Shown here one piece after another: positions 1,976 through 44,655 of a stretch of 47,767 nucleotides of DNA (position 1 is the first letter of the stretch; the number at the start of each line of letters is the position of its first letter). A program made the translations under genes and the position numbers. The stretch lies in assembly GCA_024546615.1 (NCBI GenBank), contig GCA_024546615.1_5040.1. The stretch is one strand, 5' to 3'. This stretch comes from Escherichia coli (GTDB taxonomy: Bacteria > Pseudomonadota > Gammaproteobacteria > Enterobacterales > Enterobacteriaceae). The notes under the pieces were generated by a model. The model had not been told where the DNA came from. It did no database searches and was given only the letters and a program-made list of their open reading frames with translations.

Positions 1976-3388
1976 ATGGCTAAGGCTGCTAAAACAAACC
2001 TTCATCTCATGCCAGCCCGGACTACCGATGGGCTGGTAAACGTTGTGTCCGGCTTAGGAACATGGAAAGCGAAACGCTCCCACAACATGTTCCAGTATGC
2101 TGCGCTGAATAACTGGCAACAACTTGACGCGGCTTACCAGACGAACTGGCTGGCTCGTCAGATTGTGGAAATACCCGCAGAGGATATGTGTCGTGAGTGG
2201 CGCACCATCAAGTGCAAGGAAGCTGATGACATCCGTATCGAAGAGGACCGCCTGATGGTCCCTGCCACCGTCCAGGAGGCTCTCACATGGGCACGTCTGT
2301 ACGGTGGTGGTGGTATTCTCATGCTGACCGGTCAGGACTTGTCAAAGCCGCTCGACGTGCGCCGTATTCGTAAAGGTGATTTGAAGCGTTGTATCGTGTT
2401 TGACCGTCATGACATGTCACCGCTCACTATGAACACCTGGGACATTCTGGCACCCAACTACATGATGCCGGAGTATTACACCATCACCGGCGGTGGGCAG
2501 CAAATCCACTGGACCCATTTTGCGCGTTTCAATGGTAAGCGTATCCCACGTCGCCAGATGGTCCAGACTCAGGGGTGGGGCGACAGTGAGTTACGCGTGT
2601 GCCTCGATGACATCATGGACATGGTTGCGTCGAAGGACGGCATTGCAGAACTGATGCAGGAAGCTAACGTCGATGTGGTTAAACGTGAAGGGCTGTCCGA
2701 TGAGTTAGCCAGTGACCAGGATGACGCAATTGTGTCGCGTTACACCCTGTTCAGTCAGATGAAATCACTGGTGCAGATGGCCCTGCTGGACGGTGATGAA
2801 TCGTATGAACGCAAGACGCTCGACCTGGGCGGTGTTGCACCGGTGCTTGAGACGTTCATGACGTGGATCAGTGGTGCAGCTGACATTCCTGTTACGCGCC
2901 TGTTCGGTACTTCAGCCAAAGGTTTAAACGCCACGGGTGAAGGTGACATGAACAACTACAATAACTCCATCCGCGCCAAACAGTTAACACAGGTTGACCC
3001 TGGGCTGCGCCAGCTTGATGAGGTGCTGGTGCGTAGCGCACTGGGTTACTGGCCTGACGACTTTAACTATGAGTGGCGACCACTCGCGCAACCTAACGAA
3101 TTACAGATTGCACAGGCCGCCAAAATCCGCGCTGATAAGGATATGCTGTATCTTGCCGAGGGGATAGTGAAGCCGTCACAAATCATGCGCAATCTCGAAT
3201 CATCTGAAGAATATCAGTTTGAAGATGGTGAGATAGATAAACAAGCTTCAGTTGAGTTGGATTACATCGCGTCTCCGCCCGATGACGAACCGAAACTCAC
3301 GGAACAACAGGACGCATTCTGGATACGTTATAACCAGTACGCGACTGATGGCTTGTCTCACGATGAGATAATGGCAAAACTATCCTAA
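1976..3388 (+). CDS. Portal protein (putative)
   Basis: 470 aa ORF immediately after terL; size and position typical; no motif check possible. Confidence 0.6.
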   Translation: MAKAAKTNLHLMPARTTDGLVNVVSGLGTWKAKRSHNMFQYAALNNWQQLDAAYQTNWLARQIVEIPAEDMCREWRTIKCKEADDIRIEEDRLMVPATVQEALTWARLYGGGGILMLTGQDLSKPLDVRRIRKGDLKRCIVFDRHDMSPLTMNTWDILAPNYMMPEYYTITGGGQQIHWTHFARFNGKRIPRRQMVQTQGWGDSELRVCLDDIMDMVASKDGIAELMQEANVDVVKREGLSDELASDQDDAIVSRYTLFSQMKSLVQMALLDGDESYERKTLDLGGVAPVLETFMTWISGAADIPVTRLFGTSAKGLNATGEGDMNNYNNSIRAKQLTQVDPGLRQLDEVLVRSALGYWPDDFNYEWRPLAQPNELQIAQAAKIRADKDMLYLAEGIVKPSQIMRNLESSEEYQFEDGEIDKQASVELDYIASPPDDEPKLTEQQDAFWIRYNQYATDGLSHDEIMAKLS

Positions 3389-4000
3389 TCTACCCGAGAT
3401 GTACCTTGCATACAGTCTCGAAGCGGTACATCTCGGGTATTTTTTGAAAAAGTAGAAGTATGCTTCTTGGTCGAATTTATTACCTTTCGAACGATTTATT
3501 TCTCTCGGCAATAGGCAGAGATTTTCCGAAGTATGTAACCCTCTGACATCCACGCCGCGCAACGGAATGATGTGGTCTACTTCGAGATTACCGCCAAGTA
3601 GCTTCGCGTATCGGTAAAGTTGCGAATAGACTTTTTCCACATCTTTACCGATTGAGGCCTGTGTTAAGTTTGCTCTTCTTTTGACCACTCTGGTTGCGAA
3701 CTTATCCTTGTTGGAAAGATAATGCCTTTTTGATTTATCAGCATACTTCTTGGGATTTTTTCTTTGCCAATCAATCACCCTTTCAATAATGACGTGTTTG
3801 TTTTGTTTGTAATACTCTTCTCTATATCGTGAAACTTTTTCTACGTTCTCGGATTGCCATTTCTTGTTGTATTGGGAAGTATGTGATTGATTCTGCTCAT
3901 TCCACTTTCTCTTGTACTCTTTTCTCATCTCTTTCCATTCTGAAATTCTAAGAGCATATTCGCTGTCTGTTTCAGTTTCTTTTTGCTTTGGTTTAGTCAT
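3380..4000 (-). CDS. HNH homing endonuclease
   Basis: C-terminal LEVDHIIPL...NLCLLPREINRSKGNKF HNH motif; basic N-terminus; RBS AGGTGG; inserted antisense between portal and head genes. Confidence 0.8.
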   Translation of the reverse strand: MTKPKQKETETDSEYALRISEWKEMRKEYKRKWNEQNQSHTSQYNKKWQSENVEKVSRYREEYYKQNKHVIIERVIDWQRKNPKKYADKSKRHYLSNKDKFATRVVKRRANLTQASIGKDVEKVYSQLYRYAKLLGGNLEVDHIIPLRGVDVRGLHTSENLCLLPREINRSKGNKFDQEAYFYFFKKYPRCTASRLYARYISGRLG

Positions 4001-4062
4001 GCTGTGCCACCTGTGATAATGTCGAAGTTAAAAAAAATCCCGACTTCCGCCGGGACATGTGG

Positions 4063-4629
4063 TTATGCTTTCCGATACCCCGCATCATACAGAATCTTAA
4101 CCGCACCGATTGACACGCCGGACAGCCGAACCATCTCATCAATCGCGCGTTCCGCTTCGGTGCGGAGTGGGCGCAGACGACCCGGTGCAAAACATGCAGA
4201 CCGTCCAGCACCTTTATCGTCCCAGTAAACGACCGCTACATCATTTCCGTCACTTGTGGTTTTATGTGCGATGACCTCAACAATTTCACCTTCCGCCGGA
4301 AGAATACCGTCGAAGTCAGTCTCTATGTCGTATGTACCAATGGTGAATTCCACATCAATACCAACCGGCGGCAAACCTGTTCCATCCCAGCCGACTGCCT
4401 CGTACTGTTCACGTGTGACAATTGCTGTTGCATGATTACACACCTGAGGTAAGTGACCAAGTAGCTTGTGACTTACGTGACTATCCATCCACTCATCATC
4501 TTCGTCTTTCTCCGGCTTATGGACGAAACCCCATACACTTCCTTCCTCTTCCTGTGCGATGAATTTAACACCCTCCGGCCAACCGCCACGCTTTGGTAAT
4601 TCCTGACGCAATAGTTCAAGTAATGTCAT
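4063..4629 (-). CDS. Acidic hypothetical protein (188 aa)
   Basis: About 34 D/E versus about 19 K/R; ATGA stop/start overlap with next gene; member of minus-strand operon driven by promoter at 5390-5418. Confidence 0.5.
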   Translation of the reverse strand: MTLLELLRQELPKRGGWPEGVKFIAQEEEGSVWGFVHKPEKDEDDEWMDSHVSHKLLGHLPQVCNHATAIVTREQYEAVGWDGTGLPPVGIDVEFTIGTYDIETDFDGILPAEGEIVEVIAHKTTSDGNDVAVVYWDDKGAGRSACFAPGRLRPLRTEAERAIDEMVRLSGVSIGAVKILYDAGYRKA

Positions 4630-4883
4630 TTTGTCTCTCCTGTTGCTTTAGCGATGGCTGCGCTGGCAAGCGACATTTCAGACTCATAGTGCTCATTCCA
4701 GTTTTGTTTTTGACCAGCCCGAAGCATTCTCCGCAACGCTTCCAGTAGTTCCGGAGCGGCGCAGAACAGTCTGGCGTCAGATTCGGTTTCTACTTGACCA
4801 ACAACCGTTACCCATTTTTCTGTTTCATCGGCAATGGTATATTCGCCAATGCTATCTTGCGTGTATACGAGCTTACGTGTCAT
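4626..4883 (-). CDS. Small acidic protein, paralog of 5056-5352
   Basis: Shares ELLEAL and C-terminal AAIAKATGETK with 5056-5352; duplicated DNA segment at gene 3' ends; RBS AGGAGA; start trimmed to MTRK. Confidence 0.5.
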   Translation of the reverse strand: MTRKLVYTQDSIGEYTIADETEKWVTVVGQVETESDARLFCAAPELLEALRRMLRAGQKQNWNEHYESEMSLASAAIAKATGETK

Positions 4884-5059
4884 CTCTCTTCTCCTGTTGC
4901 TTTTTGGATGCAAATAGCATCGAAACCACTATAGTTTTTATTGAAAATTGCACTTATGTTTTCAGCTGCCTTTTCACATGCATCATGATTAGAAAACTCA
5001 GCCGTTGTTACCGCTGGTCCTTGATATGACGCAACAATGATAAACAGAATCCATGTCAT
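4880..5059 (-). CDS. Small protein with hydrophobic N-terminus (about 59 aa)
   Basis: MTWILFIIVASYQG... read from minus strand; ATGA overlaps with neighbours; not in ORF track (below cutoff). Confidence 0.3.
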   Translation of the reverse strand: MTWILFIIVASYQGPAVTTAEFSNHDACEKAAENISAIFNKNYSGFDAICIQKATGEER

Positions 5060-5352
5060 TTTGTCTCTCCTGTTGCTTTAGCAATGGCTGCTTCAGCTTT
5101 CGAAGTGTTGACGTAAATACATGCGCGAGCTTGCAAATCCTGCAACGCTTCCAGTAGTTCTGAATTGATTTGGTATACGTCCGTTGCTAGCTCAACAATG
5201 TCAATGGTCGCGGAACCATCGCGTCCTTGTTCATCTTCACCGTATACTTCGAACTCACCGTTTAAAAAGTCTTCCGAACCGGATTCATACTGTGAAAGTT
5301 CGTATAAAAAATACATTGCATTGTTACCGTAGGTCAGTTCTCGTTTACCCAT
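5056..5352 (-). CDS. Small very acidic protein (98 aa)
   Basis: About 20 D/E versus 7 K/R; first gene after promoter 5390-5418; RBS AGGAGA; start trimmed from track ORF to MGKRELT. Confidence 0.5.
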   Translation of the reverse strand: MGKRELTYGNNAMYFLYELSQYESGSEDFLNGEFEVYGEDEQGRDGSATIDIVELATDVYQINSELLEALQDLQARACIYVNTSKAEAAIAKATGETK

Positions 5353-5389
5353 CTCTCTTCTCCTGTGATAATATTTAACTAACACGTAC

Positions 5390-5418
5390 ACTCTATACCA
5401 CACTGACGGAGTCGTCAA
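5390..5418 (-). promoter_or_regulatory. Sigma70-like promoter TTGACG-17-TAGAGT overlapping palindrome TGACGGAGTCGTCA
   Basis: -35 is rc of 5413-5418, -10 is rc of 5390-5395, spacer 17; drives minus-strand acidic gene operon. Confidence 0.55.
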
Positions 5419-5420
5419 GC

Positions 5421-6206
5421 ATGTCACGACAAACAGAGCTGAATTATTATCGCCAGTTGAAACAGGTTGCCCGGCTTGTTCGTGAGGATGTGGACGCCAA
5501 CATCGTACCACTGGTGAAACAGCTTGCGCCGGAGTACACCGCTGACGGCTGGAGCGATACTATCACCTCGGCAATTAACCAGTTGCTTACACGGTGGCTT
5601 GGTGCGTTTGCTCGTCGTCAGGCTGAAACCATTGCGTCACAGTTTGTACAGACTGCGGCAAAGGATAACGCCCGTACATTCGCTATCAATCTGTACGGCG
5701 GTGATACACAGTTGCAGGAATATCTCAGCGCCGCATCGTATCAGAACGCTAAACTTATTCAGTCTATCCCGGCTCAGTATCTGGAGCAGGTGCAGAACAT
5801 TGTCATGACCAACATGCGTAACGGTATGCGCCCCAGCTACATTGAGCAGGCACTTGTTAAGCAATTTGGTATCACGGAACGTCGCGCTAAACTTATCGCC
5901 CGGGACCAGACCAGTAAAATACAGGGCGACATGAACCGCATTCGTCAGACGAACAGCGGTATTGAGTATTTCAAATGGGTAACGTCACAGGATGAGCGTG
6001 TGCGTCACAGTCATGTTGAAGTTGCAAAGCGTGATGTGGGATTCGGTGAAGGTGTATTCCGCTGGGATGATTTACCGGTTGTCGATGGTGTACCAACATT
6101 TCCCGGTCAGCCAATAAATTGCCGCTGTGTGGCAAGACCAGTTACAGCGGCACAGGTGGAGCGTAACAAAAAGGCCGGTAAAACCGACCCAAATGTTAAG
6201 CGTTAA
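5421..6206 (+). CDS. Head morphogenesis protein, Mu F / SPP1 gp7-like
   Basis: C-terminal motif ERRAKLIARDQT...YFKWVTSQDERVRHSH...NCRC typical of Phage_Mu_F family. Confidence 0.8.
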   Translation: MSRQTELNYYRQLKQVARLVREDVDANIVPLVKQLAPEYTADGWSDTITSAINQLLTRWLGAFARRQAETIASQFVQTAAKDNARTFAINLYGGDTQLQEYLSAASYQNAKLIQSIPAQYLEQVQNIVMTNMRNGMRPSYIEQALVKQFGITERRAKLIARDQTSKIQGDMNRIRQTNSGIEYFKWVTSQDERVRHSHVEVAKRDVGFGEGVFRWDDLPVVDGVPTFPGQPINCRCVARPVTAAQVERNKKAGKTDPNVKR

Positions 6207-6355
6207 TCCGTTACTTTTACAGAAGCTGTGACAAGAATCGCAACGAAGAGAAACCATCCCCATCCTTCTTTACCATTGAAAGCCAACCAAGCAGAGCACA
6301 CTATTGCAAAAAGTGTCGGTAATTTTATCAACGCAACAATAATTATGTCTTTCAT
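6203..6355 (-). CDS. Small membrane protein (about 50 aa)
   Basis: MKDIIIVALIKLPTLFAIVCSAWLAF...; RBS GAGGTGGG; below track cutoff. Confidence 0.3.
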   Translation of the reverse strand: MKDIIIVALIKLPTLFAIVCSAWLAFNGKEGWGWFLFVAILVTASVKVTD

Positions 6356-6510
6356 TTCCCACCTCGCACAATGCGGCACATATCGTTATAGATGACCGGG
6401 TGTTTGCGACAACCGCATAGATTATTGTTGTGACAAGCTATCAAACTGATGTCTTTTCCGGCATACCTTTTAAACCACCAACGACGCCACAGAAACCACC
6501 TGAGTACAGT
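6356..6510 (-). CDS. Small Cys/Trp-rich protein (about 51 aa)
   Basis: RBS GGAAGGG then ATG on minus strand; MTVLRWFLWRRWWFKRY... Confidence 0.25.
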
Positions 6511-6616
6511 CATTTTCCCTTCCACGTTTCAATTAAACTTTCAATACCCAGGAACAGTAAGTAACCGAATACCAACGTTCCGAACCAGTGGTCGGCAATG
6601 AAGTTGAGTACGTCAA

Positions 6617-6805
6617 TCATTTCCCACGTCCTCTGAACACACGGTTTATCACTTCCCACAGTCCGGCAAATACAGCAACCGGACCAAATGCAACAATTGC
6701 CCACGCCTGCCACTTATATTCCAGTTCCATAGGCAGCGTGTTGATTGTTACTATAATTACCCACCCTGCAAGCAGAATAATCAGTACACCTTTAACAATA
6801 CCCAT
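6617..6805 (-). CDS. Small two-TM membrane protein with basic C-terminus (holin-like topology)
   Basis: 62 aa, two hydrophobic segments, C-terminal RVFRGRGK. Confidence 0.35.
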   Translation of the reverse strand: MGIVKGVLIILLAGWVIIVTINTLPMELEYKWQAWAIVAFGPVAVFAGLWEVINRVFRGRGK

Positions 6806-7002
6806 TAACCCAACACCTTATTAACAAGTTGATTCATCTCGACCCAGCGCTGAGATACTGACCCATCCTCTTTGGTTGCGGTGAATGTCACAATATCTTC
6901 GAGGGAGTTCATTTTGAAGTTTGTCACGGTGATGACGCCGTCCACATCGATAAATTTGTCATTGTTGCGGAGCATTACCGCCTTGATTGGTTTACAATTC
7001 AT
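6805..7002 (-). CDS. Hypothetical protein (65 aa)
   Basis: Tightly packed minus-strand ORF with overlapping stop/start. Confidence 0.4.
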   Translation of the reverse strand: MNCKPIKAVMLRNNDKFIDVDGVITVTNFKMNSLEDIVTFTATKEDGSVSQRWVEMNQLVNKVLG

Positions 7003-7190
7003 TTTCCATACGCCTCACGTAATGTAGCGTTAGCGAGCGCCCAATCTTCATGCTTGCGTGCAATCTGTTGTGCGGCCTTTAACAGTTCTTTATCGACAAT
7101 GCGCGCCTCTGATGCAGGGCGGTTGTAGCCTGGAAGTAATGTGTTATCCAATGGCAAGCTCCCATGCGGCTTTATTGTTGAGATATGCAC
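6999..7190 (-). CDS. Hypothetical protein (63 aa)
   Basis: Minus-strand ORF, ATGA-type overlap with neighbour. Confidence 0.4.
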   Translation of the reverse strand: MHISTIKPHGSLPLDNTLLPGYNRPASEARIVDKELLKAAQQIARKHEDWALANATLREAYGK

Positions 7191-7350
7191 ACGTGAGTCC
7201 AGATTTTTCCGTGATTATGAATATTCTACAACCAACATCGTCGATAATATGTCCGTATTTGTACTCCGATGATGTTGGTTTGAATTCGTAACACTTGCCA
7301 TTCGTTAAGTAATCACAATTAGTCGGTACGTTGTTTGTAAATACTTTCAT
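7144..7350 (-). CDS. Hypothetical protein (68 aa)
   Basis: Minus-strand ORF in small-gene block. Confidence 0.35.
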   Translation of the reverse strand: MKVFTNNVPTNCDYLTNGKCYEFKPTSSEYKYGHIIDDVGCRIFIITEKSGLTCAYLNNKAAWELAIG

Positions 7351-7468
7351 CTCTCAAACCCTCTCTGCTGTTGATAAACTGAGTATACGTCATCCCTGAC
7401 GAACCCGTCAACATAAATATTTAACCCAAATCACAACGCCGACACAAAGTAGGAGGTAGTCCATAGTG

Positions 7469-7669
7469 TCACTCCTGCGGCGGCTCGGGTAACGGTTGCC
7501 AGTGGGTTACATATTTACCGTAGTGATTCCAGAACGACTTTCTCCCGTCGTCAGGAACAATGTAGTAGTCGTGCTGAACTGCGTTATTCAACGTTTCATA
7601 CACCAGGAACTCTTTATCGGTACTACCGTTACCCGGCAACATCTCACTACACTTAATCCAGTTTGCCAT
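7469..7669 (-). CDS. DUF551-like protein (paralog of 40954-41157)
   Basis: MANWIKCSEMLPGNG...W...PLPEPP matches MSEWIKCSEQMPEPG...W..MPEAP of 40954-41157. Confidence 0.55.
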   Translation of the reverse strand: MANWIKCSEMLPGNGSTDKEFLVYETLNNAVQHDYYIVPDDGRKSFWNHYGKYVTHWQPLPEPPQE

Positions 7670-7847
7670 ACAATGTCCCCACTCGTTTTAAATCGCGCCG
7701 TGCGTGACAGCTATAAGTACCATCGTCCCACTGCACATAGTAGCGCGGTGGCTCATCAGTCATTACGTTTGCGACAACACCCGTAACGACACCGTTGGGG
7801 AACAACTTCACAAGTGTTCCGGTTGGATAACGTGGAATGGTTGTCAT
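7653..7847 (-). CDS. Hypothetical protein (64 aa)
   Basis: Minus-strand ORF upstream of DUF551-like gene. Confidence 0.4.
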   Translation of the reverse strand: MTTIPRYPTGTLVKLFPNGVVTGVVANVMTDEPPRYYVQWDDGTYSCHARRDLKRVGTLYGKLD

Positions 7848-7974
7848 AATTACTCACCCTCATACAGCGGTTTCAGTTGATACCCGAACATGACAGCGTT
7901 GTTATGCGCCACACTGCCCGCGCGGACCAGATATGTCGTACCGCGGTTGGTTGTCACTTCGTATGCGTATGGTT

Positions 7975-8340
7975 TCATTTGTCACCCTCCGACAGTTCAT
8001 CAATCAGACGCTCCAGATACCAGCGGGCCTTTTTCACATCTTCCAGACCGTTCTTCTCTTCGTAGCGCCACAGGTATTTAACAACGTTTGCCACACATAC
8101 CGCCTCGATACCAGTTTTACCAACCGTGGCGGCTTCGATAGCATCGATACACTCAATACCACCTTGTGTGTAGTGTGACGGATGATTGACCATGTCATTG
8201 ACTGCTACGGGTTCACGTTGGGCGATGATTTTTGATGTTTCCTCATGACTATTATATTGACAAACATAGTCACTGTTTACATTTTTAAACCTATCACCCA
8301 GTGAATAACCCTCGGAGCAATAATGCCTATCGGAGTACAC
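7975..8340 (-). CDS. Hypothetical protein (121 aa)
   Basis: First gene of minus-strand block downstream of promoter at 8462-8490. Confidence 0.5.
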   Translation of the reverse strand: MYSDRHYCSEGYSLGDRFKNVNSDYVCQYNSHEETSKIIAQREPVAVNDMVNHPSHYTQGGIECIDAIEAATVGKTGIEAVCVANVVKYLWRYEEKNGLEDVKKARWYLERLIDELSEGDK

Positions 8341-8443: not shown

Positions 8444-9586
8444 ATGTGTTTAACGATTATCACTATGGCATACTCTGACGGACTCGTCAACATGCAAATC
8501 ACCGTAACACACAATGACCGTAAAAGTTTTGCACTGAACTCCCAACGTGTTTACACGGATGAGGGATTCCTGCGTGTGCCGGGTAAAGCCGCTCGTACCG
8601 GTATTCAGGAGTATCTTGCTTTGGAACTGGGACTAAAAGACCGCGCACCGAATGACATTATCCGTGTATACCGTCCCGCCGAAGAAGTGTTTAACGATGC
8701 GTCGCTTCAGAGCTATCTCGGCGCAGATGTCACGAATAACCATCCTCCCACATTTGTCAACGCTTCCACGTACCGTAATACCTCCGTTGGTGTTGTAACG
8801 AGTATCGGTCGTCAGGACGGCGATTTTGTCATTGTGGATATGGTCATTAAGGATAAAGACGCGATTAAGGCTGTCGAAACCGGTAAGTGTGAGTTGTCAG
8901 CCGGTTACACGGCGGTGTATGATGATACACCAGGGACAACGCCGGAAGGTGAACCGTATGACTTCCGACAGACCCAGATTAAAATTAACCACGTTGCAAT
9001 TGTTGACCGTGCTCGTGCGGGTGCAATGGCGCGTATCTTCGATAATATGGAGAAAAAACCCATGTATCAAATCACCACTGACACCGGGGTAAAAGTCGAT
9101 GTGGCGGATGCTGTGGTAGTAGACGCGTTCAAACGCTTAGAACAGCGTGTCAGTGACGCAGAAGCCGCCAAAGAAACCGTACAGGCTCAACTCGACGCAG
9201 CACTGGAACAGGTTGCCGACCTGACCACCAAATGCAGCGATGAAGCCCTGAAAGCACGCGTGGAAGCAATTGCACGTGTTACCACCTCAGCACGTAAAGT
9301 TGCTGGCGATGAATTCACCTGTGACAGCGTGGACCCGGTTGCAATCAAACGTGCCGCTCTTGCTGTTAAACGTCCGTCTGTTGACTGGGCTGACAAATCT
9401 GCCGCCTATGTTGAAGCCGCTTTCGATATGGCCGTGGAAGAACCAGTGAAACCTGTGGTAGACTCACAACTTGAGCAACTGGCTAAAGATGGTGCTAAAG
9501 ACATCAAACAGCCGGTAGCCGACGCAAAACCTGTACTGTCCCGCGCACAAGAAGCACTGCTGCGTCAGACTGGCAAACTTAAATAA
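8444..9586 (+). CDS. Putative prohead protease/scaffold (DUF2213-like N-domain plus coiled-coil C-domain)
   Basis: Position before decoration-like and capsid genes; Ala/Glu-rich helical C-terminal half; true start uncertain (ATG 8444, 8465 or 8492). Confidence 0.55.
   Translation: MCLTIITMAYSDGLVNMQITVTHNDRKSFALNSQRVYTDEGFLRVPGKAARTGIQEYLALELGLKDRAPNDIIRVYRPAEEVFNDASLQSYLGADVTNNHPPTFVNASTYRNTSVGVVTSIGRQDGDFVIVDMVIKDKDAIKAVETGKCELSAGYTAVYDDTPGTTPEGEPYDFRQTQIKINHVAIVDRARAGAMARIFDNMEKKPMYQITTDTGVKVDVADAVVVDAFKRLEQRVSDAEAAKETVQAQLDAALEQVADLTTKCSDEALKARVEAIARVTTSARKVAGDEFTCDSVDPVAIKRAALAVKRPSVDWADKSAAYVEAAFDMAVEEPVKPVVDSQLEQLAKDGAKDIKQPVADAKPVLSRAQEALLRQTGKLK
8462..8490 (-). promoter_or_regulatory. 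Sigma70-like promoter TTGACG-17-CATAGT overlapping palindrome TGACGGACTCGTCAA (8476-8490)
   Basis: Spacing read directly; faces minus-strand small-gene block. Confidence 0.5.
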
Positions 9587-14227: not shown

Positions 14228-14677
14228 TTAACTTCCGGTACTCCCAAAACCACCCTGACGGTCAGTTTTCTGTTGGGGTGGTTCATTGATTTGCTTAAAC
14301 GTCACTTGTTCGACCGGAATCAACATCCCCTGTGCAATCCGGTCACCGTGATTAACCCAGAACACACCTTCACAATGGTCAACATCCTGCGTCAACTTGA
14401 CCATCAATTCACCGGTGTAGTCACTGTCAATGACGCCGGTGCAATTTGACAGACGGACATCACTGTTAAATCCGTGACCACTGCGTGAGTAAATCATCAA
14501 AGCGTACCCAACTGGTATATCAAATTTAAGCCCTGTAGGAATGATTACGGGCTCACCGTTGCGAACTGGTACTGGTTCATCAAGTACAGCATAAATATCG
14601 AAGCACGCGCTTCCTGACGTTGCATACGTTGGAATACGTGCGCCAGGGCGTGACAGGTAAATGTTCATCTCACTCAT
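14228..14677 (-). CDS. dut: dUTP diphosphatase (dUTPase)
   Basis: Motifs SRSGHG, GVIDSDYTGE and C-terminal GGFGSTG; track ORF trimmed to MSEMNIY start with RBS GGAGAG. Confidence 0.8.
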   Translation of the reverse strand: MSEMNIYLSRPGARIPTYATSGSACFDIYAVLDEPVPVRNGEPVIIPTGLKFDIPVGYALMIYSRSGHGFNSDVRLSNCTGVIDSDYTGELMVKLTQDVDHCEGVFWVNHGDRIAQGMLIPVEQVTFKQINEPPQQKTDRQGGFGSTGS

Positions 14678-14756
14678 TTCTTCAACTCTCCAGCCGTATT
14701 GTGCGCGGTTAAGCGCGATAAATTTATCTTTCGTTGTGAATAAAACTGTTCCAGAT

Positions 14757-15155
14757 TTATGCTTTACTGCCCACATATTTAATCACCATATATCCTGGTC
14801 TGGCGGAAAGTGAGACCTTGTGTCCGTATATCCACGCGGTTTTGTATACGTATGTTAACTGTGCGGTGCGCAATTTAATGTCCGAATATGTTGCTTTAGT
14901 TCTCCAGTTCCATGTGAACTCATCGCCCGGTTTTGCTCTTTCAAGGGCGTCAAGGAGGATGATACGCTCATACGACCTTACCCCACGTGATACGCGTCTC
15001 CTGGTTTTGGGCTTCCCTCGTGCCAGACTTCGTTTATCTGGTTTTCCACTTTTTGTAATTCGTATCAGTCTCTGTGATGGCTGTGCGACATCTTGAGGGA
15101 CACTCTCTTCTGGAACAGAATTTATTTTTTTTAAAATATAAGCTGCAAATGACAT
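14757..15155 (-). CDS. Basic hypothetical protein (132 aa)
   Basis: Lys/Arg-rich; first gene downstream of promoter at 15187-15215; RBS AGAGAGG. Confidence 0.5.
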   Translation of the reverse strand: MSFAAYILKKINSVPEESVPQDVAQPSQRLIRITKSGKPDKRSLARGKPKTRRRVSRGVRSYERIILLDALERAKPGDEFTWNWRTKATYSDIKLRTAQLTYVYKTAWIYGHKVSLSARPGYMVIKYVGSKA

Positions 15156-15186: not shown

Positions 15187-15215
15187 AGTATATCAGTGGC
15201 TGACGCATTCGTCAA
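15187..15215 (-). promoter_or_regulatory. Sigma70-like promoter TTGACG-17-TATACT overlapping palindrome CTGACGCATTCGTCAA (15200-15215)
   Basis: Spacing read directly; at left boundary of repeat copy A. Confidence 0.55.
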
Positions 15216-18536: not shown

Positions 18537-18569
18537 AGGGGCCTGATGGCCCCTTAATTATTTTCTTTT
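18537..18569. terminator. Bidirectional intrinsic terminator
   Basis: Hairpin AGGGGCC-TGAT-GGCCCCT followed by T-rich tract; sits between convergent genes. Confidence 0.6.
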
Positions 18570-18806
18570 ACTCCGAATGTGAAAGTCTGCTTTACCCATC
18601 ATATCTTTACGCCAGCAAACGCCGGTACCCATATACGCCGGGTCGTCACTTTCCGCATAACCAAATTCATTTTCATGATATGTGCAAATCGTGTCGGTCT
18701 GCCCGTCATAAATCTGGAATTGCTCACCTTGTTCAGCGTGGGCGCTGTTGCAGTAAATTGTTACAGCCATGATGACTGCTAACTGAATTTTAAATTTGTG
18801 AATCAT
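18558..18806 (-). CDS. Small secreted protein (moron candidate) with signal peptide
   Basis: MIHKFKIQLAVIMAVTIYCNSAHA then EQ...; Cys-containing mature part; own promoter and terminator; antisense to tail genes. Confidence 0.5.
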   Translation of the reverse strand: MIHKFKIQLAVIMAVTIYCNSAHAEQGEQFQIYDGQTDTICTYHENEFGYAESDDPAYMGTGVCWRKDMMGKADFHIRSKRK

Positions 18807-18836
18807 TTTGTACTCTCCTGTTGTTCTGTTGGGGTA

Positions 18837-18865
18837 ACTATAGCTCATCTTGACGAGTCCGTCAA
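18837..18865 (-). promoter_or_regulatory. Sigma70-like promoter TTGACG-17-TATAGT overlapping palindrome TTGACGAGTCCGTCAA (18850-18865)
   Basis: Spacing read directly; drives secreted moron gene. Confidence 0.55.
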
Positions 18866-23745: not shown

Positions 23746-23796
23746 TTGACGTGAGTGTCAATAGTATACTTGACATTATTTTCACAGGAGGGCGAC

Positions 23797-32346: not shown

Positions 32347-32375
32347 ACTCTAAACTACTTTGACGCACTCGTCAA
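32347..32375 (-). promoter_or_regulatory. Sigma70-like promoter TTGACG-17-TAGAGT overlapping palindrome TTGACGCACTCGTCAA (32360-32375), embedded in 3' end of upstream gene
   Basis: Spacing read directly. Confidence 0.5.
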
Positions 32376-33828: not shown

Positions 33829-35348
33829 TCTATTACCATTATGTAATTATTCACATCTCGCTGATAGAGAGATTTCACAATATCAGTCTCCAGATTCAAC
33901 ATTGTTGTTTTTTCCCAAGACTTACATATGGATTCCACCAAAATTTCATATTTGTTTTCATAAAAAATGACGATTCCGTCAGTATTAGTTTGCGGTACGA
34001 TTAATCCGGGTACACGAGTTACAAGTTGGTCTACCAACATTGCCAAACAGAGTTGACCTGTAATAGTAATACTCAGGAGACACTTATGGTCACAAAATGG
34101 GCTAAATTTACTCCCCATGTTCCCAAATGTACCATTAAGAGCAAGTTTCAATGCCGCATCAACTGTTTTATCTCCCGCTCGTTTTGCATCACGACGACGA
34201 ATGAACAGTTGTTCATATACGTCGCAAAAAGTTTCACTAAGGTGTTCCGGATAGTACCTATTCTTTATACTAATGGAAGGGTACATACTTGTACAGTCTT
34301 TGTTTTGTAAATTGTGTGTTTGGGTAGAATGCACAACGTAGTTCGGAATACTACTGTGAATACCTCCCAATCCGAACGAATATTCGACACCATCAACTGT
34401 GACGGTCATATCACTAAACACACCTTTTGTGGTCAGTAATTCGTCCTGTTGTTTCTTCGTGAGTACAACCCCACGAATGCGTTCCAGAATTTGATTGAAC
34501 TCCGGTCGTTCGAATTTGATATAAGGGGGTATGCAATCTGCAAGTGCAATACGTTCACGAATGGTTACTCCGGAGCAATCTACCCCGGCCTTTTCCAGCT
34601 CGTGAACGAATATATCTTTGCCGATTTTAGTGTCGGCGTGGTTCATGAAGTTACGTCCGTATTGCTTTGTCAGTTCCTCACGGAAATGGATTTTGTCGAG
34701 TGAACGTACAAAGAATTTCAGCGTCTCTCGCACGTCGTGTTTGTTATATACGATGAGGATATCTTTCTGCGCATCGTTCAGCACCATTCCGACCGGGAAT
34801 GGCAGGTCTTTTACGTTGGGGGACTGCATGCCCACTTCCAACGCCTTCAGACTGGTGCGCCGGGCTTTATTATCAAAGTGATGAATTTTGTACAGGTCAA
34901 TCTGCTCGAAAATCTGGTCGCGGTCCCATACAATTTCGGGCCACTGACCTTCGGGTTTAATTTGTGATTGTGCTTTTGTGTAAATCTGTTCCAGTGTACA
35001 GCCTGGTGTATTGACCACGTAGTGCAACACCGGATAGTCGAATGCCAGGTTATTAAATCCAATCCCACGGGCCTTACTACATCCCAGGTTGAACACAAAT
35101 TCGATTAATTGCGGTTGCTCGTTTTTGCGGTCACTAATCTCGAAGATTAACTCCATACCCGTCGCAGCGTGAATAAATGAGGCAGTGAAGATATTCGGAT
35201 ACGTCTCGATGTCCCATCCCCAGTCCCGCGGGTCCAGTGGTGCAACGCTGGAGAACGCCGAATCAGCCCCACAGTGAGGGCAATTGTGGAGGTCAGCGGG
35301 ATAATTTTTACCGCAAGTTGCATCCTCGCATTTTGATAAATAGTGCAT
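33825..35348 (-). CDS. Compact family-B DNA polymerase with 3'-5' exonuclease motifs and N-terminal zinc finger
   Basis: Exo I WDIETY, Exo II FNNLAFDYPVL, Exo III YNKHDVRE; motif A DCTSMYPSI, motif B KLALNGTFG, motif C TNTDG; N-terminal C-x4-C-x11-C-x2-C. Confidence 0.7.
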   Translation of the reverse strand: MHYLSKCEDATCGKNYPADLHNCPHCGADSAFSSVAPLDPRDWGWDIETYPNIFTASFIHAATGMELIFEISDRKNEQPQLIEFVFNLGCSKARGIGFNNLAFDYPVLHYVVNTPGCTLEQIYTKAQSQIKPEGQWPEIVWDRDQIFEQIDLYKIHHFDNKARRTSLKALEVGMQSPNVKDLPFPVGMVLNDAQKDILIVYNKHDVRETLKFFVRSLDKIHFREELTKQYGRNFMNHADTKIGKDIFVHELEKAGVDCSGVTIRERIALADCIPPYIKFERPEFNQILERIRGVVLTKKQQDELLTTKGVFSDMTVTVDGVEYSFGLGGIHSSIPNYVVHSTQTHNLQNKDCTSMYPSISIKNRYYPEHLSETFCDVYEQLFIRRRDAKRAGDKTVDAALKLALNGTFGNMGSKFSPFCDHKCLLSITITGQLCLAMLVDQLVTRVPGLIVPQTNTDGIVIFYENKYEILVESICKSWEKTTMLNLETDIVKSLYQRDVNNYIMVIE

Positions 35349-36442: not shown

Positions 36443-36471
36443 ATACTACGTTAGTTTGACGAGTGCGTCAA
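36443..36471 (-). promoter_or_regulatory. Sigma70-like promoter TTGACG-17-TAGTAT overlapping palindrome TTGACGAGTGCGTCAA (36456-36471); 5'-UTR hairpin GGGAGAC/GTCTCCC at 36414-36432
   Basis: Spacing and hairpin read directly. Confidence 0.5.
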
Positions 36472-38868: not shown

Positions 38869-38897
38869 ACTCTATATCACCATGACGCAGCCGTCAA
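38869..38897 (-). promoter_or_regulatory. Sigma70-like promoter TTGACG-17-TAGAGT overlapping palindrome ATGACGCAGCCGTCAA (38882-38897)
   Basis: Spacing read directly. Confidence 0.5.
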
Positions 38898-38911: not shown

Positions 38912-38954
38912 TTGACACGGGGTGGGTGGTGCGACATAATGACGCCATCGTCAA
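38912..38954 (+). promoter_or_regulatory. Sigma70-like promoter TTGACA-17-CATAAT with palindrome ATGACGCCATCGTCAA (38939-38954) overlapping -10/+1
   Basis: Near-consensus hexamers; palindrome in operator-like position. Confidence 0.55.
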
Positions 38955-39298: not shown

Positions 39299-40957
39299 GT
39301 GGGAGATGTGATGCAACTGCGCCCATATCAGTCCAGTCTTGTGACTGGGATCAATAATTATTGGTCAACAAACCCACGGGGTAAAGTGCTGGCGGTGCTT
39401 GCGACAGGTGGTGGGAAGACTGTTATTTTCTCATCTATTATCGCTGCCGAACAAGGTGCGACATGTGCCATTGCACACCGCCAGGAACTCGTCAGTCAGA
39501 TGAGTCTCACGCTTGCCAAAAACGGTATCTATCACCGCATTGTCGGTTCGAATAAAACCGTGAAAAACTGTGTGAAGATTCACATGGATGAATTAGGTAA
39601 GACATTTTACGACGCTGGAAGTAAACACGCGGTCGCCAGTGTGGACACAATCATCCGGCGTGGCGAGCAACTTGCCAACTGGTTACCGTCTGTTCGTCTG
39701 TGGGTTATCGATGAGGCACACCATGTACTTAAAGATAACAAATGGGGCAAAGCCGTGCAGATGTTCCCCAATGCTCGCGGGCTGGGGGTTACAGCTACAC
39801 CGTGTCGTGCGGATGGTAACGGTCTGGGAAGTCATGCAGATGGCGTGTTTGATACTATGTTCGAAGGCGTGGCAATGGGGGAACTCATACGAGATGGGTA
39901 TCTGACCGATTACAAAATTTTCGCACCTCCCAGTAGTTTCTCACGTGAACAAATTAAGGTGAGCGAGTCCACGGGGGATTTCAACCTGAACCAGATGAGG
40001 GAGGTCGTTAACGGCTCATCACTGGTGACACACGATGAGAAAACCATCACCGGTGATGTTGTTGCTCAATATCTGAAAATTGCCCGTGGTAAATCCGGCG
40101 TGACATTCACTGTCGACGTGGCGAGCGCTGAGGAAATCGCGGAACAGTATAATAAAGCAGGTGTCCCGGCAGCGGCAATAAGCTGTAACACTCCTGACCT
40201 TGAACGATTCGCAGCGGTGCGAAAATTTAAAAATAAAGAGATATTACAATTAGTTAACTCCGAGATTCTGACCGAGGGCTTCGATTGTCCCGGCATTGAG
40301 GTTGTTTCATTCGGTCGTCCAACCGAATCGTACAGTATGTATAGTCAAATGTTTGGCCGCGCCCTCAGACCATTACCAGGTAAAACCCACGCAATTATTA
40401 TTGACCATGTGGGTAACGTCATGCGCCACGGTTTACCGGATGCACCGCGTGAGTGGAGTCTTGACCGTCGGGAGCGTCGCACGGGTAAAAGTGAACCATC
40501 TACGGTGCGTGTGTGTACAGCTTGCGCGGCAGTGTATGAGCGGTTCCGTGACGCGTGTCCTGACTGTGGCGAACCTGTGCCAAAACCGGCGCAACGTAGT
40601 GGTCCCGAATTCGTAGACGGTGACCTGTACGAGCTTGACCCGGACGTACTGGCGCAGATGCGTAACGAGGTTGTGGGAGCACGTGAGACACCCGAGGCAA
40701 TGCGTGACAGACTGACTGGTCGCTACATGCCACAAGCTGGTGTCATAAGTGAGGTACGAAAACAAATAAAACGTCTTGACGCGCTCGTCAAACTGGACCA
40801 TACTCTTGCTCAGTGGGCCGGTTATCGCCGTGCGGAAGGTCTGAGCGACAGCGAAATATTTCGTAAATTTTACCTGACGTATGGTGTGTCATGGCTGGAG
40901 GCGCAGGCGCTCAAAGCGGCTGATGCGGATAAATTACGGGAGAGGATTGGATTGTGA
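39299..40957 (+). CDS. SF2 DEAD/DEAH-box helicase
   Basis: Walker A LATGGGKT, motif II VIDEAHH; RBS GGGAGA. Confidence 0.75.
   Translation: MGDVMQLRPYQSSLVTGINNYWSTNPRGKVLAVLATGGGKTVIFSSIIAAEQGATCAIAHRQELVSQMSLTLAKNGIYHRIVGSNKTVKNCVKIHMDELGKTFYDAGSKHAVASVDTIIRRGEQLANWLPSVRLWVIDEAHHVLKDNKWGKAVQMFPNARGLGVTATPCRADGNGLGSHADGVFDTMFEGVAMGELIRDGYLTDYKIFAPPSSFSREQIKVSESTGDFNLNQMREVVNGSSLVTHDEKTITGDVVAQYLKIARGKSGVTFTVDVASAEEIAEQYNKAGVPAAAISCNTPDLERFAAVRKFKNKEILQLVNSEILTEGFDCPGIEVVSFGRPTESYSMYSQMFGRALRPLPGKTHAIIIDHVGNVMRHGLPDAPREWSLDRRERRTGKSEPSTVRVCTACAAVYERFRDACPDCGEPVPKPAQRSGPEFVDGDLYELDPDVLAQMRNEVVGARETPEAMRDRLTGRYMPQAGVISEVRKQIKRLDALVKLDHTLAQWAGYRRAEGLSDSEIFRKFYLTYGVSWLEAQALKAADADKLRERIGL
40776..40804 (+). 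promoter_or_regulatory. Internal promoter TTGACG-17-CATACT with palindrome TTGACGCGCTCGTCAA inside helicase 3' coding region
   Basis: Spacing read directly. Confidence 0.4.
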
Positions 40958-41631: not shown

Positions 41632-41660
41632 TTGACCACTCCGTCAACCTGTGCCATACT
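41632..41660 (+). promoter_or_regulatory. Sigma70-like promoter TTGACC-17-CATACT overlapping palindrome TTGACCACTCCGTCAA (41632-41647)
   Basis: Spacing read directly. Confidence 0.5.
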
Positions 41661-44380: not shown

Positions 44381-44409
44381 TTGACGGACTCGTCAATAGG
44401 GCGTATATT
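44381..44409 (+). promoter_or_regulatory. Near-consensus sigma70 promoter TTGACG-17-TATATT with palindrome TTGACGGACTCGTCAA (44381-44396)
   Basis: Read directly; preceded by conserved GCAATTAGT. Confidence 0.65.
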
Positions 44410-44626: not shown

Positions 44627-44655
44627 TTGACGAGTCCGTCAAGGTAGGTTATCTT
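44627..44655 (+). promoter_or_regulatory. Sigma70-like promoter TTGACG-17-TATCTT with palindrome TTGACGAGTCCGTCAA (44627-44642)
   Basis: Read directly; same GCAATTAGT upstream context as 44381. Confidence 0.6.

Follow-up and report, generated by a model that had tools for sequence, protein, structure and literature searches.

A variable antisense operon in the head module of a Jedunavirus-type phage genome, probably an array of exchangeable accessory-gene cassettes

The window analysed here is a stretch of 47,767 nucleotides (nt) from the Escherichia coli draft assembly GCA_024546615.1 (contig GCA_024546615.1_5040.1), and the element under study is an operon of four small genes, A to D, which runs antisense to both of its flanking genes, a portal gene and a Mu-F-type minor head morphogenesis gene. 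We propose that this region is probably a dispensable, hypervariable array of accessory-gene cassettes in a fixed expression slot of Jedunavirus genomes. The best-supported description, judged from sequence comparison, is that the Jedunavirus island represents a further case of a known kind of genome feature, built from uncharacterised but widespread phage families. In the scheme that we envisage, a conserved host-type promoter (5418-5390) with an operator-like palindrome would drive one transcript through A, B, C and D, which would end at an intrinsic terminator (4056-4037). Related phages, as their comparison shows, swap whole genes and sub-gene modules at junction cassettes, at a 19-mer coding for ELLEAL, and at the ends and the linker of D. 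The products, as non-late proteins, would bind host or host-defence components, and their diversification would reflect an arms race. An early host-interaction or counter-defence role of this kind is plausible. The coordinates of all features are collected in Table 1.

The region 3300-6300 matches 73 phage records, nearly all of them Klebsiella myophages of the genus Jedunavirus (KpV79, JD001, SBP and others). The flanks are 90-96% identical to those of Jedunaviruses, and none of the records covers 80% or more of the query. The window appears to be a complete Jedunavirus-type genome of the JD001/KpV79/SBP group, with one whole phage genome in one contig. Between conserved core genes, ten Jedunaviruses are polymorphic in the presence and content of the island, with zero to six genes: none in JustaPhage, one in JD001 and KLPPOU148, two in KpV79, FZ14, KB2, BUCT_49532 and Geezett, four in the window and six in SBP. 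In JustaPhage, the promoter and leader are followed directly by an HNH endonuclease gene, and exactly the segment 4021-5342 of the window is missing. This exact empty site indicates that the island is dispensable, and it agrees with an earlier note on this DNA, written from the letters alone, which had described the operon as inserted in the head module. SBP matches the window at 4550-6163 (95.5%), 4351-4434 and 4069-4173, and not in the two hypervariable segments of D (HV1 and HV2, described below); its A, B and C differ from those of the window by 1-3 nt each, and both variable segments of D are wholly replaced. KpV79 matches at 3001-4428 and 5140-6113. In these pairwise comparisons, the breakpoints are located at the junction cassettes, at the 19-mer that codes for ELLEAL, and in those parts of D that hardly vary, its ends and its linker.

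The three minus-strand genes on which the earlier note was based, namely A, C and D, are real at the positions listed in Table 1, and NCBI calls the same proteins; the fourth gene of the operon, B, had been missed. The A/B, B/C and C/D pairs each overlap by the four bases ATGA, which combine stop and start. All four start codons are preceded by ACAGGAGA-N6-ATG, a pattern found five times in the window against 0.25 expected. By this layout the four genes are predicted to be translationally coupled in one operon. Their guanine-cytosine (GC) content is uneven, with B the lowest, around a window value of 48.7%.

The sigma70-type promoter that the earlier note had placed upstream of A was found as well. 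Both of its hexamers are invariant in the ten Jedunaviruses, four spacer positions vary, and KpV79 carries a promoter annotation at the homologous place. Eight sites of the form TTGACG-N17-TAnnnT are present in the window, where 0.68 would be expected by chance; downstream of each, at a distance of about 25-50 nt, comes an ATG with a purine-rich stretch before it that resembles a ribosome-binding site (RBS). These sites front genes in or adjacent to the replication region and other antisense mini-operons, and none of them fronts a sense-strand structural gene. The -35 hexamer of the island promoter forms the left half of the palindrome TTGACGACTCCGTCA (5404-5418). The invariant hexamers, the over-represented class of sites and the position of the -35 element within the palindrome make the promoter credible despite its match to only 9 of the 12 consensus positions. 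The palindrome itself, TTGACG-N4-CGTCA(A), is present at 15 sites in the window (30 strand-matches against about 1.4 expected). At eight of them its left half is the -35 element of a TTGACG-N17-TAnnnT promoter, or at nine if a site with an 18-nt spacer at 7411 is included. In the copy at the island promoter, the half-sites are invariant among the ten phages and the N4 spacer varies. The palindrome resembles a binding site, operator or activator, for a dimeric regulator of the phage that would act on all non-structural transcription units. Since the same promoter class serves genes of the replication region, the operon belongs to the non-structural promoter class of the phage. This class fits non-late expression, which may be early (host RNA polymerase with a shut-off operator) or middle (activator-dependent).

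The leader contains an 11-nt direct repeat, ATTATCACAGG (5362-5372), whose second copy (4010-4020) lies before the HNH gene. As these two places, before A and before the HNH gene, are the only occurrences of the 11-mer in the window, the repeat brackets the island. The KpV79 authors annotated a terminator at the place homologous to the one that follows D. Taken together, the notion of an antisense operon with a promoter of its own inside the head module was borne out, with a sigma70-like promoter and a terminator, by prediction and by conservation.

In the PHROGs database, A and C fall into phrog_1273, B into phrog_3766 and D into family 7798. C is a member of PF27050 (Phage_P22_Y8K6), as the identical protein P0121 carries PF27050.1, and it has the family motifs (A)APELLEAL and AAIAKA(T/L)GE near its C-terminus. 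A consists of an acidic N-terminal part, ELLEAL (as SELLEAL), a variable tail and AAIAKATGETK. Its match to phrog_1273 has an E value of 0.0017, and its own cluster carries no PF27050 flag; flagged are homologues that have the N-terminal part of A (P0244-P0247) and homologues that have its tail (P0147 and others), the tail being 94% identical to PF27050 members such as P0147. A may be regarded as a borderline member of PF27050/phrog_1273. The PF27050 proteins join a variable N-terminal part to a shared C-terminal part, which forms a helical hairpin in the model of A. N-terminal parts of the A type, the C type and a 'GTPGPW' type are each joined to many different tails between ELLEAL and AAIxKATGETK, and the tail of A recurs on N-terminal parts of the other two types. 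Compared with KpV79 gp06 over codons 1-70, A shows nine synonymous and two non-synonymous differences, an excess indicating that A is a real gene under purifying selection. B has a hydrophobic N-terminus (MTWILFIIVASY...) and two cysteines, and it may be membrane-anchored or secreted.

Exactly three segments of DNA are common to A and C. The longest, of 39 nt (GCAGCCATYGCTAAAGCAACAGGAGAGACAAAATGAC; 4623-4661 and 5053-5091, 97% identity), covers the last codons, for AAIAKATGETK, together with the stop codon, and it also contains the Shine-Dalgarno sequence and the ATG from which the next gene starts. The second, of 19 nt (4733-4751 and 5142-5160, 100%), encodes ELLEAL, and the third, of 17 nt (4881-4897 and 5350-5366, 100%), is an RBS cassette. 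All three are junction motifs found throughout the family. Outside them the two genes are about 50% identical in DNA, and the proteins are 38% identical (E value 6e-4). The earlier note had read A and C as tandem paralogs with duplicated 3' DNA that had arisen by recent duplication; the shared segments are indeed real and non-random, but a recent tandem duplication was rejected on account of the roughly 0.5 DNA identity elsewhere. As far as the alignments indicate, A and C are distant members of one family. B ends in KATGEER, and gp03 of BUCT_49532, which has neither ELLEAL nor AAIAKA, ends in KATGETK directly before its D gene. That three island proteins and this unrelated one all end in KATGE(T/E)(K/R) is explained by the RBS of the downstream gene lying inside the last codons of the upstream gene. 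The conserved KATGETK tail is thus, for the most part, the trace of a portable translational-coupling junction. Because such a tail can mark a portable RBS/start junction and not protein homology, paralogues should be called with caution where raw sequence is the only basis.

PF27050 genes are also present in Enterobacter lambdoid prophages, where they lie in the early-left operon between N and cIII/kil. In one such prophage (L010, 5466-6503) the PF27050 gene stands directly after an HNH_3 gene and upstream of cIII, kil and recT. The genes of the window differ from these in that they belong to a virulent myophage and are situated within its head module, and A in that it has an acidic N-terminal part of its own.

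D is modelled as a conserved N-terminal helix, two exchangeable beta domains and two C-terminal helices. The 105 family members examined include at least 28 HV1 types and at least 25 HV2 types, which occur in 77 different combinations and give 85 four-gamete violations; the HV1 and HV2 slots therefore recombine freely. With at least 28 x 25 cassette types in this sample, the family is a clean natural case of two-slot domain shuffling on a fixed scaffold. In the N segment, the codon differences among eight phages are 26 synonymous and no non-synonymous ones; this segment is therefore constrained as protein. A diversity-generating retroelement was considered as the source of the variation and rejected, as every D segment is present only once in the window; the HV types, moreover, are of unequal length and do not align with one another, which also counts against it. 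The halves of D are found in other arrangements: JD001 gp31 consists of the second half only, P0385 and P0421 carry further domains, and P0358 (386 amino acids, aa) has three tandem first modules (KLIDLLV.ELP..GGWP, beta domain, ..REEYE) followed by one second module, so that the two halves are independent, repeatable units. HV2 is replaced in gp040 of phage KB2 (L007, 794-1669) and in P0360: there, D encloses in frame an entire HNH_3 homing endonuclease that has an apparent AP2 domain, and it retains its N-terminus, its first domain, the linker and the C-terminal helices. Among 20 long or multi-stretch forms scanned, HNH_3 was found only in P0360, while P0047 and P0053 carry HNH_3 in precomputed annotation. 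The idea that all long forms (260-316 aa) are endonuclease carriers was rejected; the others carry extra beta-domain modules.

The D family is large (1435 clusters at 90% identity, 3091 representatives at 50%) and spans Klebsiella, Salmonella and E. coli phages of about 45-48 kb, Phapecoctavirus, the Pseudomonas PAK_P3 group, and Aeromonas and Vibrio phages. Its members are always annotated as 'hypothetical protein', and a Pfam search of all 105 gave no matches. The published PAK_P3 transcriptome has an early region of gp74-gp112 and does not mention gp119, a distant D homologue. E. coli Ea22-like prophage proteins may carry a similar GLPPVG...YDAGYRK module, which we take as a lead only.

The earlier note had called the operon strongly acidic and its proteins candidate DNA mimics. 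How acidic are they? With 19 Asp/Glu against 7 Lys/Arg in 98 aa, an isoelectric point (pI) of 4.10 and a net charge of -12.5, A fits this description well. D fits it moderately (34 against 19 in 188 aa, pI 4.72), and these counts are near those of the note. B (7 against 4 in 59 aa) and C (14 against 10 in 85 aa, pI 4.94) are ordinary. When the 75 open reading frames (ORFs) called in the window are ranked by net negative charge per residue, A comes first (0.122) and D fourth (0.080), and B and C are unremarkable. The anti-restriction protein Ocr carries 34 acidic residues among its 116 aa, against 6 basic ones (PMC3439906). This density is about twice that of A, and none of A, B, C and D as a whole protein has the extreme acidic excess of Ocr. 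Residues 18-58 of A, with 13 Asp/Glu and one basic residue, approach the density of Ocr, and the acidic positions of this part are kept in the A-type homologues, including the distant P0255 and P0256. This A-type N-terminal part is the exception; negative charge is not conserved across the D or C families. Within the D family, net negative charge per residue lies between 0.00 and 0.10 (pI 4.3-6.9). This charge resides in the variable segments, the conserved framework being neutral to basic, and is therefore not a feature that the family conserves. In the C family the pI ranges from 4.05 to 9.99.

Would the acidic proteins, chiefly A, nevertheless mimic DNA and block type I/III restriction, BREX and other DNA-binding defences early in infection, as the earlier note suggested? 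A is the most net-negative ORF of the window, and its net charge (-12.5 in 98 aa) is within the range of small mimics such as Ugi and AcrIIA4. The conserved acidic stretch of A, the non-late promoter class and the location in an accessory island are consistent with this proposal as well. Ocr of phage T7 is produced before restriction of the entering DNA by the host becomes possible, and A resembles Ocr and ArdA in being a small, net-negative (pI 4.1) protein encoded by a phage or mobile element. In contrast, A and D are less extreme in charge, and the sequence and fold searches linked none of A to D to Ocr, ArdA or another solved DNA mimic. In a phmmer search against all PDB chains with E values up to 10, A and D had no match, and C gave only coiled-coil and histidine-kinase noise at 0.22 or worse; the PDB is assumed to hold Ocr, ArdA and other solved mimics. 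Pfam, NCBIfam and PADLOC profile searches gave no matches for A to D. Solved DNA mimics have folds unrelated to one another, and the missing fold match therefore counts only weakly against mimicry. With no link in these databases and with charge not a trait of the D family, the proposal was not upheld, and we judge it distinctly unlikely. As a class, the island proteins would not be Ocr/ArdA-like DNA mimics; this option would remain only for the acidic N-terminal part of A, and as a DNA-mimic lead A alone is worth a bench test.

A different explanation is that the PF27050-type proteins, and perhaps D, are packaged into capsids and enter the cell together with the injected DNA, as P1 Dar and the T4 internal proteins do. 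The first island gene of Jedunavirus MMNM (GenBank MEW1), MEW1_57, is of the PF27050 type and shares 51% identity with C across the C-terminal 55 aa. Mass spectrometry of virions purified on caesium chloride identified 25 proteins, and its product, MMNM_57, is on that list (PMC8269216 Table S4; PMC11633184 Table 1). The island also lies between the portal gene and a Mu-F/SPP1 gp7-like minor head gene, and D has an invariant 20-aa N-terminus ahead of its hypervariable segments, which recalls the capsid-targeting sequences of T4. The likeness to the T4 internal proteins (IPI*) and P1 Dar is thus threefold: a hypervariable payload behind a conserved terminal segment, a location in the head module, and a homologue in virions. 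On this explanation, the C-terminal hairpin, or the invariant termini of D, would act as the virion-association signal. However, the promoter of the island is of a class that serves the replication region and not the structural genes, and the virion signal in MMNM may be contamination. MMNM_47, the other unexpected small protein in the virion list, is also the first gene behind such a promoter; with both proteins encoded first behind the same promoter type, high abundance and co-purification explain their detection equally well. Genes 57 (L013, 42005-42319) and 47 (35117-35290, 57 aa) of MMNM/MEW1 both lie behind promoters of the TTGACG-N4-CGTCA type. Moreover, JustaPhage forms virions without the island, and JD001 keeps only the C-terminal half of D. 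Packaging and injection are, in our view, unlikely. Alternatively, the mosaicism could be a by-product of homing-endonuclease traffic, with the small genes being near-neutral hitch-hikers that have no specific role. An HNH gene abuts the island and is itself present or absent among relatives, an HNH_3 endonuclease replaces HV2 in frame within D of KB2 and P0360, an HNH_3 gene adjoins the PF27050 gene in lambdoid prophages, and Geezett has another endonuclease-like gene beside its portal gene. Near-neutrality is hard to reconcile with the purifying selection on A (9 synonymous/2 non-synonymous) and on the N segment of D (26/0), with the size of the D family and its conservation across many phage genera, and with the well-conserved expression signals of the island. 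This explanation is very doubtful, the least probable of those weighed here.

Several points also weigh against our own proposal of a cassette array whose non-late products act on the host. The PHROGs label of all four families is 'unknown function', and literature searches on PF27050 and on the peptide motifs yielded nothing relevant. The timing of expression is read from the promoter class, and an activator might just as well bind the palindrome, in which case the promoter would be of the middle class. The view of the products as binders in an arms race is drawn from patterns of diversity, and recombination by nearby homing endonucleases could yield mosaicism without any selection for diversity. 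The detection of a PF27050 homologue from the same slot of MMNM in purified virions favours packaging over a purely intracellular early role for such a protein. A more specific form of the proposal would be that the island encodes recombination-shuffled counter-defence binders: the C-terminal hairpin of PF27050 would serve as a dimerisation or virion handle presenting interchangeable N-terminal parts, the DNA-like acidic part of A among them, D would present two independently swappable beta domains on an invariant helical scaffold, and the alleles would set the intracellular host range of therapeutic Klebsiella phages that are otherwise almost identical. Stated in such detail, it has little probability.

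As an array of accessory cassettes, the island can be compared with the accessory regions, 'morons' and anti-defence islands of other phages, such as lambdoid mosaic boundaries, the hyperplastic regions of T4, the subjects of accessory-gene screens (PMC12373910) and clustered anti-defence genes (PMC7648647). It resembles them as a polymorphic block between core genes that has its own promoter and terminator, a partly deviant GC content and recombination at short boundaries. It differs from them in that its boundaries are coding, being translated RBS/ATGA junctions, and in that shuffling reaches inside genes, at ELLEAL and at the linkers of D. The search for therapeutic phages against Klebsiella is yielding Jedunaviruses as candidates. 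Across backbones that share about 90-96% identity, the island is among the sites of wholesale difference. Should its cassettes act on host defences, they would help to account for those differences in host range that capsule depolymerases do not explain.

Table 1. Features of the island and its surroundings in the 47,767-nt window
Feature	Position	Strand	Remarks
Island extent	4021-5342		defined against the empty site in JustaPhage
Gene A	5056-5352	minus	98 aa, pI 4.1, 43% GC
Gene B	4880-5059	minus	59 aa, 37.8% GC
Gene C	4626-4883	minus	85 aa, 48% GC
Gene D	4063-4629	minus	188 aa, 50% GC
D N segment, residues 1-20	4570-4629	minus	98% family identity to the window protein (105 relatives)
D HV1, residues 21-65	4435-4569	minus	24% family identity
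D linker, residues 66-93	4351-4434	minus	78% family identity
D HV2, residues 94-151	4177-4350	minus	35% family identity; within region modelled as SH3/Tudor-like barrel
D C-terminal two helices, residues 152-188	4066-4176	minus	89% family identity
Promoter TTGACG-17-TAGAGT	5390-5418	minus	9/12 consensus match; abuts divergent Mu-F start codon (5421)
Leader	5350-5372	minus	11-nt direct repeat and RBS cassette
Type-1 RBS cassette ACAGGAGAAGAGAGATG	5350-5366	minus	
Junction cassette copy 1 GCAGCCATTGCTAAAGCAACAGGAGAGACAAAATGACAT	5053-5091	minus	codes AAIAKATGETK, stop, RBS and ATG of next gene
Junction cassette copy 2	4623-4661	minus	97% identical to copy 1; directly upstream of/overlapping D start
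Intrinsic terminator	4037-4056	minus	8-bp stem, GGAA loop, U8 tail, -13.5 kcal/mol; follows D
Palindrome sites	5404-5418, 7397-7411, 8476-8490, 15201-15215, 18851-18865, 23747-23761, 32361-32375, 33968-33982, 36457-36471, 38883-38897, 38940-38954, 40777-40791, 41633-41647, 44382-44396, 44628-44642		
Small terminase	83-535	plus	
Large terminase	525-1973	plus	
Portal	1976-3388	plus	
HNH endonuclease gene	3380-4000	minus	outside the operon; basic, pI 9.9, 39% GC
Mu-F-type (SPP1 gp7-like) minor head morphogenesis gene	5421-6206	plus	PF04233, E value 8e-16

The HNH gene beside the island converges on the portal gene, and the 3' ends of the two overlap by 9 nt. It is present in JD001, KLPPOU148, KpV79 and JustaPhage, and replaced or absent in SBP, BUCT_49532, FZ14, KB2 and Geezett; this patchy distribution suggests a mobile homing endonuclease.

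The proteins A to D of the window are deposited as Escherichia coli under the consecutive accessions MCQ6539863-66, despite the Jedunavirus genome that encodes them. Nothing similar was found in the complete E. coli genomes searched, and the contig may represent a phage contaminant of the draft assembly or a carried phage.

Further antisense mini-operons of small genes lie inside the plus-strand structural module at 6203-8340, 14228-15155 and 18558-18848, each behind a promoter of the same class as that of the island (7411, 8490, 15215 and 18865). With several such mini-operons under promoters of their own, the structural region is interrupted by several accessory islands. The ORF at 7469-7669 looks DUF551-like by sequence, and its counterpart in BUCT_49532 is annotated as DUF551.

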